NCBI RefSeq assembly: GCF_003334785.1
Contig: NZ_QOWV01000015.1
Source of the DNA: Escherichia coli
GTDB taxonomy: Bacteria > Pseudomonadota > Gammaproteobacteria > Enterobacterales > Enterobacteriaceae
Length of the DNA stretch: 64,000 nt
Strand: one strand, 5' to 3'
Below, one piece after another: positions 4,661 through 55,737 of this stretch. Position 1 is the first letter of the stretch, and every line of letters starts with the position of its first letter. The position numbers and the translations under genes are program-made. The notes beneath the pieces are model-generated. The model worked only from the letters and a program-made list of their open reading frames with translations. It was not told where the DNA came from and did not search any database.

Positions 4661-6103
4661 TTACTCTACCGTTAAAATACGCGTGGTATTAGTAGAACCC
4701 ACGGTACTCATCACGTCGCCCTGGGTGACAATCACCAGGTCACCAGACATCAAGTAACCTTTATCGCGCAGCAGATTAACCGCTTCGCTGGCAGCTGCTA
4801 CGCCGTCATTAGCGCTATCAAAGTGCACCGGCGTAACGCCACGATAGAGAGCAGTCAGGTTCAGCGTACGTTCATGGCGCGACATGGCGAAAATTGGCAG
4901 ACCAGAGCTGATACGGGAGGTCATCAGCGCGGTACGACCCGATTCGGTCATGGTGATGATCGCCGTAACGCCTTTCAGGTGGTTAGCTGCGTACATTGCT
5001 GACATGGCAATAGCTTCTTCCACATTGTCGAACTGAACGTCCAGACGGTGTTTAGAAACGTTGATGCTCGGGATTTTTTCCGCACCCAGGCAAACGCGCG
5101 CCATGGCTGCAACGGTTTCTGACGGATACTGCCCAGCGGCAGTTTCTGCAGACAGCATCACAGCGTCAGTACCATCCAGAACGGCGTTTGCTACGTCCAT
5201 GACTTCTGCACGCGTCGGCATCGGGTTAGTAATCATTGACTCCATCATCTGGGTCGCCGTGATTACCGCTCGGTTTAGCTGACGCGCACGACGGATCAAC
5301 GCTTTCTGAATGCCGACCAGTTCCGGGTCGCCAATTTCCACACCGAGGTCGCCACGTGCAACCATTACCACGTCAGAGGCGAGGATGATGTCATCCATTG
5401 CATCCTGGCTGCAAACGGCTTCCGCACGTTCAACCTTGGCAACAATTTTCGCATCACATCCTGCATCGCGTGCCAGGCGACGGGCATAGTTCAGATCTTC
5501 GCCACAGCGTGGGAAGGAGACAGCCAGGTAATCTACGCCAATCAACGCCGCAGTCTTAATGTCTGCTTTGTCTTTTTCGGTCAGCGCTTCAGCCGACAAA
5601 CCGCCGCCAAGTTTGTTGATACCTTTATTGTTGGAGAGGGGACCACCGACGGTGACTTCGGTGAACACTTTCATGCCCTGAACTTCCAGTACTTTTAACT
5701 GGACGCGACCATCGTCCAGCAGCAGGATGTCACCAGGCACGACGTCAGCAGGCAGGCCTTTGTAGTCGATACCGACTTTTTCTTTGTCGCCTTCACCTTT
5801 ACCCAGGTTGGCGTCGAGCAGGAATTTATCCCCAATATTGAGGAAAACTTTGCCTTCTTTAAAGGTGGATACACGGATTTTGGGCCCCTGGAGGTCACCC
5901 AGAATAGCCACATGACGCCCCAGTTTTGCGGCAATCTCACGAACTTTATCCGCGCGCATTTTGTGATCTTCAGGCGAGCCGTGAGAAAAGTTCATACGTA
6001 CAACGTTGGCACCCGCCGCGATAACTTTTTCAAGATTATTATCGCGATCTGTTGCTGGGCCTAACGTGGTAACGATTTTTGTTCTGCGAAGCCTTCTGGA
6101 CAT
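4661..6103 (-). CDS. pykA: Pyruvate kinase II PykA
   Basis: Start trimmed to [19 protein letters not shown] (480 aa); pyruvate kinase family throughout. Confidence 0.93.
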
Positions 6104-20458: not shown

Positions 20459-20715
20459 AACATTTAAGCTGATGACCACCGCGCTTTTTATTGACCATTT
20501 TGCACGCAAACTGGAAAACCTGGCGTCGTCATCTATTCTTAAAGGGCAAGGCAACTAAGCCTGCATTAATGCCAACTTTTAGCGCACGGCTCTCTCCCAA
20601 GAGCCATTTCCCTGGACCGAATACAGGAATCGTGTTCGGTCTCTTTTTATCTGTTAAAAGCCAGAAGCATTTCCTTCGCTGACTTTATAGTCAACCATAA
20701 CACACACTCTACTGT
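20420..20715 (-). ncRNA. ryeA: RyeA (SraC) antisense RNA overlapping sdsR (ends approximate)
   Basis: RyeA is known to be transcribed opposite SdsR; ends inferred, not read from the sequence. Confidence 0.35.
20546..20648 (+). ncRNA. sdsR: SdsR (RyeB) small RNA
   Basis: GCAAGGCAACTAAGCCTGCATTAATGCC...GACCGAATACAGGAATCGTGTTCGGTCTCTTTTT matches recalled SdsR including its terminator; sits in the yebY-pphA spacer. Confidence 0.75.
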
Positions 20716-23529: not shown

Positions 23530-23608
23530 GAGCATATACCACTGGCAAAAAAACAGGCGCGCAGTTTAGCATAAACGCTCCGGCGCAGGCACGCCGGAGC
23601 AGTGGGCA

Positions 23609-26242
23609 TTATTTGGGAAGCGCAGTACCCCATTCACGCCACTCTTTCGGTTCACTTTCCTGCAACAGGAAGTGCTTGCCTTCCTGGGCTTTCGGTGCCA
23701 GTGGCGTCCCCGGAGGCGTGGCGAAGGCGATGCCGCCACGGATAAACTGGTTAAAGGTGCCGGTTTTCACTACGCCGCCCGTCAGACCAAAGTCCAGACT
23801 GTAACCCGATGCCAACCAGAAGACGGAATTGTTACGCACCAGGTGTTGATAGCGTTTACTGATGCGCATCGCAATCATCACGCGATCTGACAATGTCCCC
23901 AGCGTCATTCCTGTAACCGTACCGACTTCCAGACCACGGAACAGCACAGGCGTACCGATGCCTAACGAACCGGCTTCCGGCGCTTCAACAATAATGCTTA
24001 AGCCATCCAGGTAACGCGAATCAGTAATGGTGGCCTCTTGTAATTCAAAGTCGCGGCGAGGATTGCCCCGGCCTGGTTCGACGTTGATATACGGCTGGAG
24101 GATAGTATCAAGATGCTCAACGCCAGCTGCCGAAATTTGCGGTGTGACCAGTGAGAAGCGCGTACCACCGCGAGCAAAGGTCTGGACATATTCCGGATAG
24201 AGCACCGCCTTTGCCTGTACTTCATTGCGCGCGGTAATCAGATCCAGCGTCTGGATTTGCCCGATATCAATACCGAGATAGCGAATTGGCATCCCGACCG
24301 CCAGTTTTCCGGCATCGAAAGCGTGAAGCGTAATCTGCCCGCCAACCGCACGGGCCGCTGTTTCGGAAGCATACAGAATTCGTTTGTCGCCTTTACGCTG
24401 ACTGGCGCTGGCACCGCTGAGGTTATCGAAGCTAATGGCTCCCTTTAATGCTCTGGAGAGCGGGGATGCCTGTACGGTCAGGCCACTACCATTCAGCTGA
24501 ACTTTCGCCCCGCCTTCTGCCCAGAACACGCTATTGCTGGTCAGAAGGTTGCGATACTCCGGCTTAATATGCAGATCGATATCAAACGCGTTAGCTCGCG
24601 GACGGACGGTAATAACTTCACCAACTTCAAATTTACGGTAGAGCACTACCGATCCTGCCTGCACATCCGGCAGCGTCTCTGCACTCAAACTCACGGTTGT
24701 GGTGGGTAAATCGCTAAGGCTGTTCTCCAGCGCTTTTTCCAGATTGGCATACAGTGGATAGCTGGCTTTCATCTCGCCTTTATCGCCCGGCAGAATACGT
24801 ATCCCGCCGTTAATCCATTCTGAGGCGCTGGCACCGAGAAACTCAACGCCATCCAGCCCCACCTTCACGTCGACACGGCTGTTGACGACAAATTTGCTAT
24901 CGCCTTTTACCAGTTCTCGATGCTGAGGCTCGATGGCGACGGTAAAGGTGACGCCTTTGCTGGTGAGTTTACGATCGATAACCAGGCCTACCTGCACGCC
25001 GTGAAGAATGAGCGGCTGACCCGCATCAATACCGTAACTTTCCGGTGCGGTCAGGGTCAGCGTCAGAACATCAGGTTCATGCAGCAGTGCTTTTTCGCCT
25101 GGCACAACAACGAACTCTTTGCGTGGCTCGCCATCGCCGGGTACCAACTCGAAGGTTTTGCCAGTCAGCAGGGCGCTGAGATTGGCATCGCTAAGGGATA
25201 ATTTCGGGTTGCGTAATTCGATGCGGGTATTTTCCCGTAACAGCGTAACGACGCTGGGATCAACGGTCATTTCTCCGGTGACTTTACCACCAGGATTTAA
25301 ATCCAGTTTAGTCAGCTGTCCGACTTCCAGCCCCTGATACATTAACGGCGTCGAGTCGGCGGTTAATCCTGCCCCACTCGGCAGTTCCAGTTTTATTATT
25401 ACGCCACGCTGGCTGTGGGCCAGATCTTCATACAGACCAAAGGTATCTTCCGCCTCGGCAGGTTTCGACTCTTCTGGTGAATCGAAGGCAATCGCACCGT
25501 TAACCAGTGCCGCCAGACTTTCCAGTTTCACCTTCGCGCCACTGATACTGACGTTGGCATCAACGCCGGAAACGTTCCAGAAACGGCTACCTTTTTTCAC
25601 CAGGTCGGTAAAACGCCGCTCGATCAGGACATCAATCACCACGCCTTGCTTGTTGGGATTGATGGCATAGTCGTAGACTTTTCCCACCGGGATCTTGCGG
25701 AAATAGACCAATGAACCGCTGTTCAGCGAACCGAGATCGGGGGCTTGCAGGTGGATCATCAGATCGCCATTGTCCAGCCGATATTTCGGTTGGGTATCGA
25801 GTGCGACAAAGTGATCCTGCTCTTTACCTTTACCCGGCATCATGCCGATATAGTTACCACCGACGAGGGCGTCCAGCCCGGAGACACCTGCCAACGATGC
25901 TTTTGGCGTCACCAGCCAGAACTGAGTCTCTTCGCGCAGCGCATCTTTCATATCGGACTTGATGCTGACCTTGACTTCAATCTTACGAAGATCGTCGCTG
26001 AGGCTGATATCCTGCACTGTTCCGACTTCAACGCCCTGATAACGAACAGGCGTACGGCCCGGAACAATACCATCCGCCGACATAAAGTCGATGGTGACGG
26101 TATTACCCCGGTCCTGATAACTGTCCCAAATCAGCCAACCGGCAATCATTAGCGCGATGAAAGGCAGCAGCCAGAAAGGTGAGATACGGCGTTTATTTTT
26201 AATCTGCGCTTCAGTCGTCGAAGCGGGCGTTTCCTGACTCAT
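23609..26242 (-). CDS. letB: Lipophilic envelope-spanning tunnel protein LetB (YebT), multi-MCE-domain
   Basis: 877 aa from [27 protein letters not shown]...; N-terminal TM helix then repeated MCE-like modules. Confidence 0.9.
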
Positions 26243-27494
26243 GTGCATCCCAAAGTAAGCGGCTGTCCAGCCATTCCACAGCAAGAATAGTCAAAATTAC
26301 CGCTGCGCCGAAATAAAACGCAGCCGGTCCCATAGTAAAAGCGAGGATCTGATCGCGATTAATCAGCGACATGGTTAAAGATATGACAAACAGGTCGAGC
26401 ATCGACCAGCGACCAATCCAGGTCACCATCCGCAGTAACAGAATGCGTGTGCGTAAACCTTGCTGGCATTTAAAATGAATGCTCAACAGTAAAGTGAACA
26501 TGACGATCACTTTAGTAAACGGTACCAGAATACTGGCGATAAACACGATTCCCGCAACCGCAATGTTGCTACTTGCCAGCGACATAATTCCGGAAAGAAT
26601 TGTATCTTCCTGCCGTCCTCCGTTCAGATAAATGATAGAAATAGGCAACAGGTTGGCAGGTAACAACAAAACGATTGACGCTAACAGCGCCGCCCAGCAT
26701 TTTTGCAAACTATGACGGCGACGCACGCGTAGCGGGATATGGCAACGCGGGCAGCGACCACGCTGATCAGGATAGCCGGTAAAATGGCACCCAAGACAGA
26801 CACGGAGTTTCTCGTCCCTACGCGTAGCGGGGCGCTGCGGATAAAATCGCTCCCACAGCTCCTCGACATTAAGATGTGACAACGTCACCGTCGTTAAAAT
26901 CACCAACGCCACAAAAGAGAACAAGCCCACACCCGCCTGGATATGGGCATAATCCTGTACCTTTATAGAAGCAACGCCAATGCCGACCAGGTAGATATCC
27001 AGCATTACCCACTCTTTAAGTCGCTCAAGCATCAGCAGTACCGGGCGTAGATTCATTCCCAGTCGGTTACCAAACCATAAATAAACTATGGAGGTCACCA
27101 GAATGAGGGGGGCACCGATAACGCAGAAAAAGACCATCGACCCCGTTATCGCATCGCCCTGTTTGGTCATTTGCCAGATGCCTTGCATAACGTTGGCGTC
27201 AATACGAATGCCTAACAGCCAGATATGCAACAGCGGTTCGCCCCAGGCAAACGGCATCAGCAACAGCATGGTGAAAGCCATTGCCGCCAGGCGCGTTAGC
27301 GACCAGTCGCGCCCGTCGCGAATTTTTGCCTGACAGCGCGGACAATAGGCACTCTGATGAGAATTTATCTCGGGCAGGCTAAACAGCATGTCACATTGCG
27401 GGCAACGTTGGTAATCACCACGCGGCAGTTCCTCGCCGATTGACCTCACTGTTATCTTTTTTGTCGGCGTAATTTGTGGTGTGTTAAGAGCCAT
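26211..27494 (-). CDS. letA: PqiA-family inner membrane protein LetA (YebS)
   Basis: 427-aa ORF with Cys-pair zinc-ribbon-like motifs (CPQCDMLF...CPRCQ; CLGCHF...CPRCH); 3' end overlaps the letB start by 32 nt. Confidence 0.9.
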
Positions 27495-27623
27495 GACGTG
27501 CCAAATGTAATAAGAATTAACATTAATATTAACCCATGATTGGAATGATCTTGAGCATTAACGCATTTAATGCTTATTTTAATAGGCTGGCAGTTCCAGG
27601 TAAGACAACCAAGTGATTATATA

Positions 27624-54005: not shown

Positions 54006-55691
54006 TTGAAGAAGGTTTGGCTTAACCGTTATCCCGCGGACGTTCCGACGGAGATCAACCCTGACCGTTATCAATCTCTGGTAGATATGTTTGAGCAGTC
54101 GGTCGCGCGCTACGCCGATCAACCTGCGTTTGTGAATATGGGGGAGGTAATGACCTTCCGCAAGCTGGAAGAACGCAGTCGCGCGTTTGCCGCTTATTTG
54201 CAACAAGGGTTGGGGCTGAAGAAAGGCGATCGCGTTGCGTTGATGATGCCTAATTTATTGCAATATCCGGTGGCGCTGTTTGGCATTTTGCGTGCCGGGA
54301 TGATCGTCGTAAACGTTAACCCGTTGTATACCCCGCGTGAGCTTGAGCATCAGCTTAACGATAGCGGCGCATCGGCGATTGTTATCGTGTCTAACTTTGC
54401 TCACACACTGGAAAAAGTGGTTGATAAAACCGCCGTTCAGCACGTAATTCTGACCCGTATGGGCGATCAGCTATCTACGGCAAAAGGCACGGTAGTCAAT
54501 TTCGTTGTTAAATACATCAAGCGTTTGGTGCCGAAATACCATCTGCCAGATGCCATTTCATTTCGTAGCGCACTGCATAACGGCTACCGGATGCAGTACG
54601 TCAAACCCGAACTGGTGCCGGAAGATTTAGCTTTTCTGCAATACACCGGCGGCACCACTGGTGTGGCGAAAGGCGCGATGCTGACTCACCGCAATATGCT
54701 GGCGAACCTGGAACAGGTTAACGCGACCTATGGTCCGCTGTTGCATCCGGGCAAAGAGCTGGTGGTGACGGCGCTGCCGCTGTATCACATTTTTGCCCTG
54801 ACCATTAACTGCCTGCTGTTTATCGAACTGGGTGGGCAGAACCTGCTTATCACTAACCCGCGCGATATTCCAGGGTTGGTAAAAGAGTTAGCGAAATATC
54901 CGTTTACCGCTATCACGGGCGTTAACACCTTGTTCAATGCGTTGCTGAACAATAAAGAGTTCCAGCAGCTGGATTTCTCCAGTCTGCATCTTTCCGCAGG
55001 CGGTGGGATGCCAGTGCAGCAAGTGGTGGCAGAGCGTTGGGTGAAACTGACCGGACAGTATCTGCTGGAAGGCTATGGCCTTACCGAGTGTGCGCCGCTG
55101 GTCAGCGTTAACCCATATGATATTGATTATCATAGTGGTAGCATCGGTTTGCCGGTGCCGTCGACGGAAGCCAAACTGGTGGATGATGATGATAATGAAG
55201 TACCACCAGGTCAACCGGGTGAGCTTTGTGTCAAAGGACCGCAGGTGATGCTGGGTTACTGGCAGCGTCCCGATGCTACCGATGAAATCATCAAAAATGG
55301 CTGGTTACACACCGGCGACATCGCGGTAATGGATGAAGAAGGATTCCTGCGCATTGTCGATCGTAAAAAAGACATGATTCTGGTTTCCGGTTTTAACGTC
55401 TATCCCAACGAGATTGAAGATGTCGTCATGCAGCATCCTGGCGTACAGGAAGTCGCGGCTGTTGGCGTACCTTCCGGCTCCAGTGGTGAAGCGGTGAAAA
55501 TCTTCGTAGTGAAAAAAGATCCATCGCTTACCGAAGAGTCACTGGTGACTTTTTGCCGCCGTCAGCTCACGGGATACAAAGTACCGAAGCTGGTGGAGTT
55601 TCGTGATGAGTTACCGAAATCTAACGTCGGAAAAATTTTGCGACGAGAATTACGTGACGAAGCGCGCGGCAAAGTGGACAATAAAGCCTGA
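54006..55691 (+). CDS. fadD: Long-chain-fatty-acid--CoA ligase FadD
   Basis: 561 aa from TTG start ([14 protein letters not shown]); AMP-binding signature [12 protein letters not shown]. Confidence 0.92.
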
Positions 55692-55710
55692 GCGTTAAGT
55701 CAGTCGTCAG

Positions 55711-55737
55711 ACGCCGGTTAATCCGGCGTTTTTTTTG
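55711..55737 (+). terminator. Rho-independent terminator after fadD
   Basis: ACGCCGG TTAA TCCGGCGT followed by TTTTTTTT. Confidence 0.7.

Follow-up and report, generated by a model that had tools for sequence, protein, structure and literature searches.

The region described here holds a well-studied chromosomal operon of Escherichia coli, letA-letB (yebS-yebT), which is involved in lipid movement across the cell envelope; no result speaks against this identity. The region is part of the window (the whole stretch of 64,000 nucleotides that was analysed); its DNA shows 100% identity to E. coli chromosomes, and it was found in 5425 of 5426 complete genomes and is labelled yebS/yebT with the same coordinates. 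The RefSeq annotation of a 100%-identical E. coli chromosome also gives the same letA and letB coordinates and the same overlap between the two genes. The neighbours of the locus are rsmF, msrC, proQ and prc. The genes and their domains are as follows.

26211..27494, minus strand: letA/yebS coding sequence, 427 amino acids, stop included; inner-membrane PqiA/YebS-family transporter subunit (ORF, RefSeq, PF04403 twice, TIGR00155, PDB 9n8w_A)
27300..27425, minus strand: LetA N-terminal zinc ribbon, residues 24-65 (CPQC and CPRC motifs; limits and Zn binding from PMC13017536)
26844..27299, minus strand: LetA transmembrane domain N, PqiA domain 1, residues 66-217 (PF04403, E = 1.4e-38)
26712..26840, minus strand: LetA C-terminal zinc ribbon, residues 219-261, with Cys233, 236, 248 and 251 (CLGC and CPRC motifs; limits from PMC13017536)
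26241..26708, minus strand: LetA transmembrane domain C, PqiA domain 2, residues 263-418 (PF04403, E = 8.4e-43)
23609..26242, minus strand: letB/yebT coding sequence, 877 amino acids, stop included; seven-MCE tunnel protein (ORF, RefSeq, seven PF02470, PDB 9n8w_B and 6v0c)
26126..26179, minus strand: LetB N-terminal membrane anchor, about residues 22-39 (18 residues; read from the sequence, helix limits approximate)
25832..26110, minus strand: LetB MCE domain 1, residues 45-137 (PF02470, E = 4.7e-19)
25583..25756, minus strand: LetB MCE domain 2, residues 163-220 (PF02470, E = 6.9e-08)
25184..25405, minus strand: LetB MCE domain 3, residues 280-353 (PF02470, E = 9.2e-10)
24878..25063, minus strand: LetB MCE domain 4, residues 394-455 (PF02470, E = 6.3e-06)
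24476..24703, minus strand: LetB MCE domain 5, residues 514-589 (PF02470, E = 1.5e-04)
24071..24337, minus strand: LetB MCE domain 6, residues 636-724 (PF02470, E = 2.3e-12)
23819..24004, minus strand: LetB MCE domain 7, residues 747-808 (PF02470, E = 9.7e-11)

LetA and LetB and their known relatives

Gene letA starts with an ATG and ends with a TGA stop at 26213..26211. Its product contains two tandem PF04403 modules, each preceded by a tetracysteine CXXC-Xn-CXXC with n inside the 11-18 range of the family, and scores 705.2 bits with the curated model TIGR00155 (cut-off 260.35), as is expected of a member of this family. It matches PDB 9n8w_A with E = 5e-290 and 3 substitutions, and differs from K-12 LetA at 3 of 427 residues (S18/A, V137/A and V257/L), none of these strain-level substitutions affecting a cysteine or a position that is invariant. 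The C-terminal module carries the sequence GRWSMLDLF (residues 361-369), in which G361, W363, S364, M365 and D367 are invariant. The GRWSM-psi-D-psi-F motif of the LetA family is described in PMC13017536 and, used as a pattern, it retrieved 593 related loci. A multi-MCE gene is placed directly 3' of the PqiA/YebS gene, on the same strand, both here (letB) and in 75 of 80 related loci.

Gene letB starts with the ATG at 26242 and its stop ends at 23609. The giant multi-MCE protein announced in the preliminary description was recovered by the domain search, which found seven PF02470 (MlaD/MCE) domains, all with E <= 1.5e-4; together with the single N-terminal anchor, which is preceded by a basic KNKRR stretch, this is the type IV arrangement of six to eight tandem MCE domains. 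LetB matches 9n8w_B (1949 bits) and 6v0c_A over its full length, and is also present alone in solved structures, 6v0c among them. With the equivalog pair NF011683 / NF008070, LetA reached 215.5 against a PqiA cut-off of 562 and LetB 470.5 against a PqiB cut-off of 525; since both stay below, the pair is the YebS/YebT paralogue and not PqiA/PqiB.

The LetAB complex has been solved by cryo-EM (PDB 9N8W/9N8X; Santarossa et al., Nature 2026; PMC13017536) and consists of six LetB and one LetA (PMC13017536). Cryo-EM and crosslinking of this same protein revealed LetB as a hexameric tunnel of stacked rings that binds phospholipids (PMC13017536). Published structures and genetics show that LetA is built of two tandem modules, in each of which a cytoplasmic zinc ribbon of four cysteines precedes a tetraspanin-like transmembrane domain, and that LetB is anchored by one N-terminal helix followed by its seven MCE domains. 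Six stacked copies of LetB form a tunnel that crosses the periplasm over about 225 A, and the single LetA at its inner-membrane end presumably loads phospholipids into it or drives them through.

The K-12 LetA-LetB (YebS-YebT) pair of PDB 9N8W/9N8X is the same locus, with the same overlap, eight cysteines, seven MCE domains and neighbours, and differs by strain-level allelic substitutions only. A paralogous architecture is found in the paraquat-inducible MCE system PqiA-PqiB-PqiC of E. coli, in which a multi-MCE gene also follows the PqiA gene and whose function partly overlaps that of LetAB. In PqiA, too, each of the two PqiA modules carries a CxxC-Xn-CxxC ribbon (C13/16/33/36 and C224/227/238/241). 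However, PqiB has three MCE domains and a coiled-coil needle and requires the lipoprotein PqiC, whereas LetB has seven MCE domains. Moreover, E. coli pqiA and pqiB do not overlap but are separated by a 4-nt spacer with a strong canonical GAGGAG Shine-Dalgarno sequence, in contrast to the 32-nt overlap of letA and letB. The single-MCE ABC transporter MlaFEDB resembles LetB in using a hexameric MCE ring for phospholipid trafficking between membranes, and the MlaD Pfam family matches every LetB repeat. Nevertheless, Mla is driven by the ABC ATPase/permease MlaFE and the soluble shuttle MlaC, whereas LetAB lacks an ATPase, its place being taken by the tetraspanin-like LetA (PMC13017536).

LetAB is one of the Gram-negative routes for phospholipids between inner membrane and outer membrane, and LetA is the founder of a structurally distinct transporter family whose importance is recognised in the literature. 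The pair had been regarded from the start as a known lipid-transport module without novelty, and rightly so, as PMC13017536 describes it, the 32-bp overlap included. Both the 32-nt overlap and the zinc-binding cysteines of LetA are real and already known; since they are already published, the locus is an ordinary one and the window contributes just one more E. coli letAB allele. It is the conservation of these two features, rather than single-sequence statistics, that shows them not to be due to chance.

The cysteines of LetA

Four CxxC motifs were located in LetA (C31/C34, C51/C54, C233/C236 and C248/C251), forming two pairs, just as had been noticed beforehand. Each pair reads CxxC-Xn-CxxC, with n = 16 in the first and 11 in the second; the codons of Cys31, 34, 51 and 54 lie at 27333..27404 on the minus strand. 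Three further cysteines (C124, C266 and C343) stand alone. Among 110 homologues with 22-48% identity the eight ribbon cysteines are 96-99% conserved, those of the C-terminal ribbon 98-99%, and all eight are invariant in A1, while the three lone cysteines are conserved in just 1-11% of the 110. The zinc ribbons that the preliminary description had suggested, and that a lack of conservation of the Cys pairs in such distant homologues would have put in question, have been established by cryo-EM, ICP-MS and Cys mutants (PMC13017536). In the cryo-EM structure both ribbons, ZnR-N and ZnR-C, are seen with the CXXC-Xn-CXXC arrangement (PMC13017536).

The role of the zinc sites is structural, stabilising the folding of LetA. 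CxxC pairs in other proteins can bind iron or form disulfides, and the tetracysteines could in principle be redox-active or iron-binding sensor sites instead, a reading that would gain from the remark in PMC13017536 that metal preference may vary with conditions. We consider this highly improbable. K-12 LetA, which is 99.3% identical to the LetA of the window, contained about 2 Zn per protein by ICP-MS, and zinc alone was enriched among the 80 elements measured (PMC13017536). The eight cysteines are intolerant of mutation, their mutants having less LetA protein, and they are the only mutation-sensitive residues of the ribbons (PMC13017536). In addition, LetA kept its function when the ribbons of PqiA (41% and 28% identity) were swapped into it (PMC13017536). 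All of these results speak against a sensor and fit a structural zinc site.

The letA-letB junction

The two features of the junction are given below.

26211..26242, minus strand: out-of-frame overlap of 32 nt, covering LetA residues 418-427 with the stop and LetB residues 1-10 with two bases of codon 11 (sequence, RefSeq)
26247..26251, minus strand: weak Shine-Dalgarno-like GGGAU, 4 nt ahead of the letB ATG, formed by the codons of LetA W415-D416 (anti-SD duplex)

The sequence of the overlap, with the letA stop codon counted in, is ATGAGTCAGGAAACGCCCGCTTCGACGACTGA. As 32 = 3x10+2, the two genes are read in different frames. The ORFs, the sequence and the RefSeq coordinates thus agree with the 32-nt overlap in another frame that was first described, and a native overlap of 32 bp is also stated in PMC13017536. 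The overlap is exactly 32 nt in 31 of 53 LetB-type loci, all of them Enterobacterales and spread over several families (represented by Escherichia, Yersinia, Serratia, Hafnia and Erwinia), and an overlap of some length is present in 47 of the 53 (89%). Other lengths are 8, 14, 17, 20, 23, 26, 29, 35, 41 and 50 nt. At some loci a spacer of 2-37 nt separates the two genes, and in Pectobacterium a 2-nt spacer takes the place of the overlap. In distant loci the starts were called automatically with a preference for ATG, and the Aeromonas loci were probably mis-called, where a start at GTG or TTG, behind a strong Shine-Dalgarno sequence, gives an 8-nt overlap. With the same caution, the approximate distribution for PqiA-PqiB-type loci consists mostly of overlaps of 4 or 8 nt, which are typical of coupled genes.

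The GGGAU element, whose best anti-SD duplex is of -4.0 kcal/mol, may be the ribosome-binding site of letB. The context TGGGA....ATG is invariant across the 31-sequence junction alignment; W415 of LetA is invariant and D416 is at least 90% conserved.

These values assume that letB starts at 26242. The frame is open upstream as far as a TTG at 26284, which gives the longest mechanical ORF (891 amino acids), and another ATG is placed at 26248, two codons upstream; if letB began at one of these codons or further downstream the true overlap would be 74 nt, 38 nt or none. There is very little chance that this is so. Of 30 aligned Enterobacterales loci, 13 have ACG, ACT or ATA in place of the ATG at 26248, while the ATG at 26242 is invariant, and the TTG has no usable Shine-Dalgarno sequence and adds a peptide that is not conserved. 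Neither of these two starts being conserved, both were rejected. The next ATG downstream falls inside the membrane anchor, past an N-terminal stretch of 11 LetB residues that is conserved in all Enterobacterales loci compared. Moreover, both RefSeq and the 877-residue chain seen by cryo-EM begin at 26242.

Is letB translationally coupled to letA?

We infer a partial translational coupling of letA and letB. The comparative data fit coupling because overlap is the rule in LetB-type loci, the same-strand overlap of stop and start being kept in the relatives. Through the overlap, the start codon of letB lies among the codons of LetA's disordered C-terminal tail, and the only Shine-Dalgarno-like element available to letB is the weak GGGAU of the conserved Trp415-Asp416 codons. 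Ribosomes that finish letA may then hold the letB start site open and supply it with subunits, which would couple the two genes in part, and extra independent initiation at letB would supply the roughly six-fold excess of LetB. The ratio of 1 LetA to 6 LetB cannot result from a 1:1 termination-reinitiation. This ratio and the fact that LetA's deep mutational scan took a refactored plasmid with non-overlapping letA and letB as its wild-type reference (PMC13017536) show that coupling is neither the sole nor an obligatory route to LetB. Taken as a whole, the explanation of the locus as letA-letB, with structural zinc in LetA and a partial coupling complemented by independent letB initiation, is in our judgement almost certainly the best one.

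The weak Shine-Dalgarno-like element, the 2-nt spacer of Pectobacterium and the 4-nt spacer of pqiA-pqiB are observations that point away from coupling. A text search of the literature found no paper joining yebS, yebT and translational coupling.

It is quite possible, though it is not the reading that we favour, that the overlap has no regulatory role and is only a by-product of where the stop falls in a dispensable LetA tail, letB being initiated essentially independently from its own weak ribosome-binding site. The variable length of the overlap, its replacement by a spacer in some loci and its loss in Pectobacterium would be expected in that case, and residues 419-427 of LetA have no cryo-EM density (PMC13017536). 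The functional screen that relied on the refactored construct agrees with it as well, and the 6:1 ratio requires independent initiation anyway. Furthermore, folding of 121 nt gave no evidence for an RNA structure masking the letB start (-31.5 kcal/mol, z = -0.52 against shuffles), so that there is no obvious need for ribosomes coming from upstream to unmask it. On the other hand, a mere by-product does not easily account for a length of exactly 32 nt kept over several Enterobacterales families, for the overlap in 89% of LetB-type loci, or for the short overlaps, like those of coupled genes, in most PqiA-PqiB-type loci. The conservation of third-codon positions, 0.90 and 0.83 in the overlap against 0.73 and 0.60 in the flanks, does not discriminate between coupling and a by-product, because dual coding alone predicts higher silent-site conservation.

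A further reading would see in the conserved 32-nt overlap and the ribosome-binding site within the Trp-Asp codons a functional device and more than the neutral result of a floppy tail. Such a device might tie LetB initiation to ribosomes ending LetA, with assembly in cis and the LetB anchors inserted beside fresh LetA, or tune the 1:6 ratio; we regard it as unlikely. Whether the long conserved overlap plays any part in expression or assembly is a modest, specialist question.

Two further features flank the operon.

27495..27623, no strand assigned: AT-rich intergenic region separating the divergent letA and msrC, where the letAB promoter is presumed to lie (sequence and annotation)
23576..23601, minus strand: terminator-like GC-rich hairpin of 11 pairs (consensus scan; putative function)

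A consensus scan found no consensus sigma-70 match in 27495..27623. The same kind of scan is uninformative on an internal letB promoter inside letA: over 4.6 kb it gave 2 promoter-like sites where 3.6 were expected, none of them close to the junction. The hairpin lies between letB and rsmF, directly after the letB stop, and is followed by a weak T tail (TTTATGCTAA).

Identity and gene structure of the letA-letB pair

Several E. coli chromosomes match the 4.3-kb region carrying letA (yebS) and letB (yebT) at 100% identity, and the region is present as a single copy in 5425 of the 5426 complete E. coli genomes. The following features were located in the window:

27494 (ATG) to 26213..26211 (TGA), minus strand: letA ORF, 427 aa, from the ORF listing
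26284 (TTG) to 23609 (stop), minus strand: open letB frame, from the ORF listing
26211..26242, minus strand: letA/letB overlap, ATGAGTCAGGAAACGCCCGCTTCGACGACTGA, 32 nt including the letA stop codon
23601..23576: GC-rich hairpin after the letB stop and before rsmF, from a consensus scan

Two PqiA domains were found in LetA with Pfam (E = 1e-38 and 8e-43), and the domain search of LetB returned the MCE repeats that had been expected of it, seven MlaD/MCE domains with E-values from 5e-19 to 1.5e-4. LetA scores 705 bits against the NCBIfam PqiA/YebS subfamily model (cut-off 260). An identity as PqiA/PqiB was rejected, since both equivalog scores lie under their cut-offs (215 bits against 562 for the PqiA model and 470 against 525 for the PqiB model); the pair is therefore the YebS/YebT paralogue. 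LetA differs by three substitutions (S18/A, V137/A and V257/L) from its chain in the LetAB cryo-EM structures, PDB 9n8w/9n8x, to which LetB also has a full-length match, besides earlier structures such as 6v0c and 6kz3. The letAB system is textbook knowledge and its structures are solved; the preliminary description had already called the pair a known lipid-transport module without novelty, and the two features singled out there, the 32-nt overlap and the cysteine ribbons, are already in print (Santarossa et al., 'LetA defines a structurally distinct transporter family', Nature 2026, PMC13017536). According to that paper LetB is a seven-ring hexameric tunnel spanning the periplasm, with LetA docked where the tunnel meets the inner membrane, and both proteins are required for resistance to cholate and lauryl-sulfobetaine when pqiAB is absent.

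Read from ATG 26242, letB encodes an 877-aa protein (junction sequence and script). This ATG and the TGGGA ahead of it are invariant in a 31-sequence junction alignment. Another candidate, ATG 26248, was discarded because its codon is replaced in 13 loci of that alignment, which settles the start codon. The overlap, read by the two genes in different frames, is thus exactly the 32 nt first described, the coordinates first given for the pair (23609-27494) are correct to the base, and the RefSeq coordinates (yebT 23609..26242, yebS 26211..27494) give the identical value.

Zinc ribbons of LetA

In each of the two modules that make up LetA, a cytoplasmic zinc ribbon precedes a tetraspanin-like transmembrane domain; the ribbons, ZnR-N (residues 24-65) and ZnR-C (residues 219-261), both contain a CXXC-Xn-CXXC tetracysteine motif (PMC13017536). 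The CxxC pairs proposed from the sequence to form such ribbons lie precisely there (CPQC 31-34, CPRC 51-54, CLGC 233-236 and CPRC 248-251), and zinc binding is published: about two Zn per LetA were measured by ICP-MS, zinc being the only one of 80 elements enriched, and the LetA fold is stabilised by it (PMC13017536). Mutations at the eight cysteines are not tolerated, loss of these residues leading to less LetA, while C124, C266 and C343 are dispensable (PMC13017536). These last three are the only isolated cysteines of LetA, and no cysteine was found by script in the whole LetB protein sequence.

HMMER, run over the full set of 1.84 billion cluster representatives, found 2949 relatives, and the 110 near-full-length ones (22-48% identity to LetA) were aligned. 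Conservation of the cysteine pairs in homologues was borne out, each of the eight ribbon cysteines being present in 96-99% of the 110, with values of 11%, 10% and 1% for C124, C266 and C343, respectively. Ribbon cysteines are missing only from gene calls truncated at the N-terminus and from two proteins without the second ribbon, an architecture also reported for some homologues (PMC13017536). In a separate 26-sequence alignment the eight are invariant. E. coli PqiA has equivalent CxxC motifs, and LetA remains functional when given the PqiA ribbons (PMC13017536).

The overlap and possible translational coupling

A one-genome-per-species scan provided 80 loci encoding LetA relatives, and in each of them the stop codon of the LetA-like gene was mapped together with the possible start codons of the MCE gene that follows. 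Where this MCE gene is LetB-sized (at least 750 aa, 53 loci) the genes overlap in 47 loci, by exactly 32 nt in 31.

Junctions between LetA-like genes and the downstream MCE gene

Escherichia, Citrobacter, Enterobacter, Kluyvera, Cedecea, Pantoea, Erwinia, Yersinia, Rahnella, Serratia, Hafnia, Rosenbergiella (Enterobacterales): 32-nt overlap
Acerihabitans: 29-nt overlap
Mixta (locus L019): 29-nt overlap, downstream ORF of only 543 aa
Edwardsiella: 41-nt overlap
Brenneria: 50-nt overlap
Providencia: 26-nt overlap
Pasteurellaceae: 17-35-nt overlap
Vibrio: 8-nt overlap
Pectobacterium: 2-nt spacer without overlap
PqiB-sized loci: junction mostly 4 or 8 nt

The short Mixta ORF could be truncated, belong to a pseudogene or stem from a fault in the assembly, and the 777-aa MCE protein of Providencia vermicola (L058) probably has six MCE domains. 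Four further loci (L036, L045, L047, L059) lack a long ORF where expected after the LetA-like gene, which a frameshift, a misassembly or another order of the genes could explain; in L036 a stop found about 2.6 kb beyond the match suggests a frame problem.

In the 31-sequence alignment, third codon positions within the overlap show a conservation of 0.90 (letA frame) and 0.83 (letB frame), against 0.73 and 0.60 in the adjoining segments with a single coding frame, an excess expected from dual coding. The overlap encodes LetA residues 418-427, of which 419-427 have no cryo-EM density (PMC13017536), and the first ten residues of LetB, preceding its basic stretch and membrane anchor, so that the shared sequence falls in the least constrained part of either protein. 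Just 3' of the letB ATG, a CAGGAAA (window 26227-26237, minus strand; equivalents in loci L002-L056) is invariant in 31 Enterobacterales sequences and the four bases after it (window: ACGCC) are nearly so; it includes an SD-like AGGA, and its conservation probably reflects the dual-coding constraint (LetA G-N, LetB Q-E-T).

The overlap would allow some translational coupling of letB to letA. The only SD-like element of letB is a weak GGGAU (-4.0 kcal/mol, 4-nt spacing) made up by the invariant LetA codons Trp415-Asp416, which, with the overlap being the norm in the family, is consistent with such coupling. E. coli K-12 pqiA-pqiB (locus L082, 5225-5275) differs, having a 4-nt spacer instead of the 32-nt overlap and a strong canonical Shine-Dalgarno, GAGGAG, within the 3' end of pqiA; pqiB and pqiC overlap by ATGA. 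The coupling reading is nevertheless limited by several observations that favour an overlap without functional role. Folding revealed no significant RNA structure at the letB start. The complex contains one LetA and six LetB (PMC13017536), which demands letB initiation beyond the supply of ribosomes arriving from letA. In the published deep mutational scan, the plasmid serving as wild-type reference had letA and letB refactored to non-overlapping ORFs (PMC13017536), and the overlap is absent in some lineages. Pectobacterium (L028, L034; near 5233-5254) is a natural "refactored" variant, its letA homologue stopping earlier so that the letB ATG follows the spacer. A functionless overlap is a serious rival, quite possible without being probable; partial coupling together with independent letB initiation appears the most likely arrangement.

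Surroundings

RefSeq places pphA, yebW, yebV and rsmF beyond letB, and msrC, proQ and prc beyond letA. The AT-rich 129 bp separating letA from the divergent msrC presumably hold a promoter; a simple scan of this region gave no match to the promoter consensus. At 20508-20652, beside pphA, two Rfam models match at gathering level, those of the antisense sRNAs SraC/RyeA (minus, 175 bits) and SdsR/RyeB (plus, 114 bits), which form a pair. Further Rfam matches, unrelated to letAB, are the cspA thermoregulator (36141-36601, plus, 135 bits) and the sRNA sroD (55650-55735, plus, 115 bits). With TTG 28888 as its first codon, the longest prc ORF would share sequence with the 3' end of proQ, whose stop is at 28916; the RefSeq start of prc is at 28936, beyond proQ.
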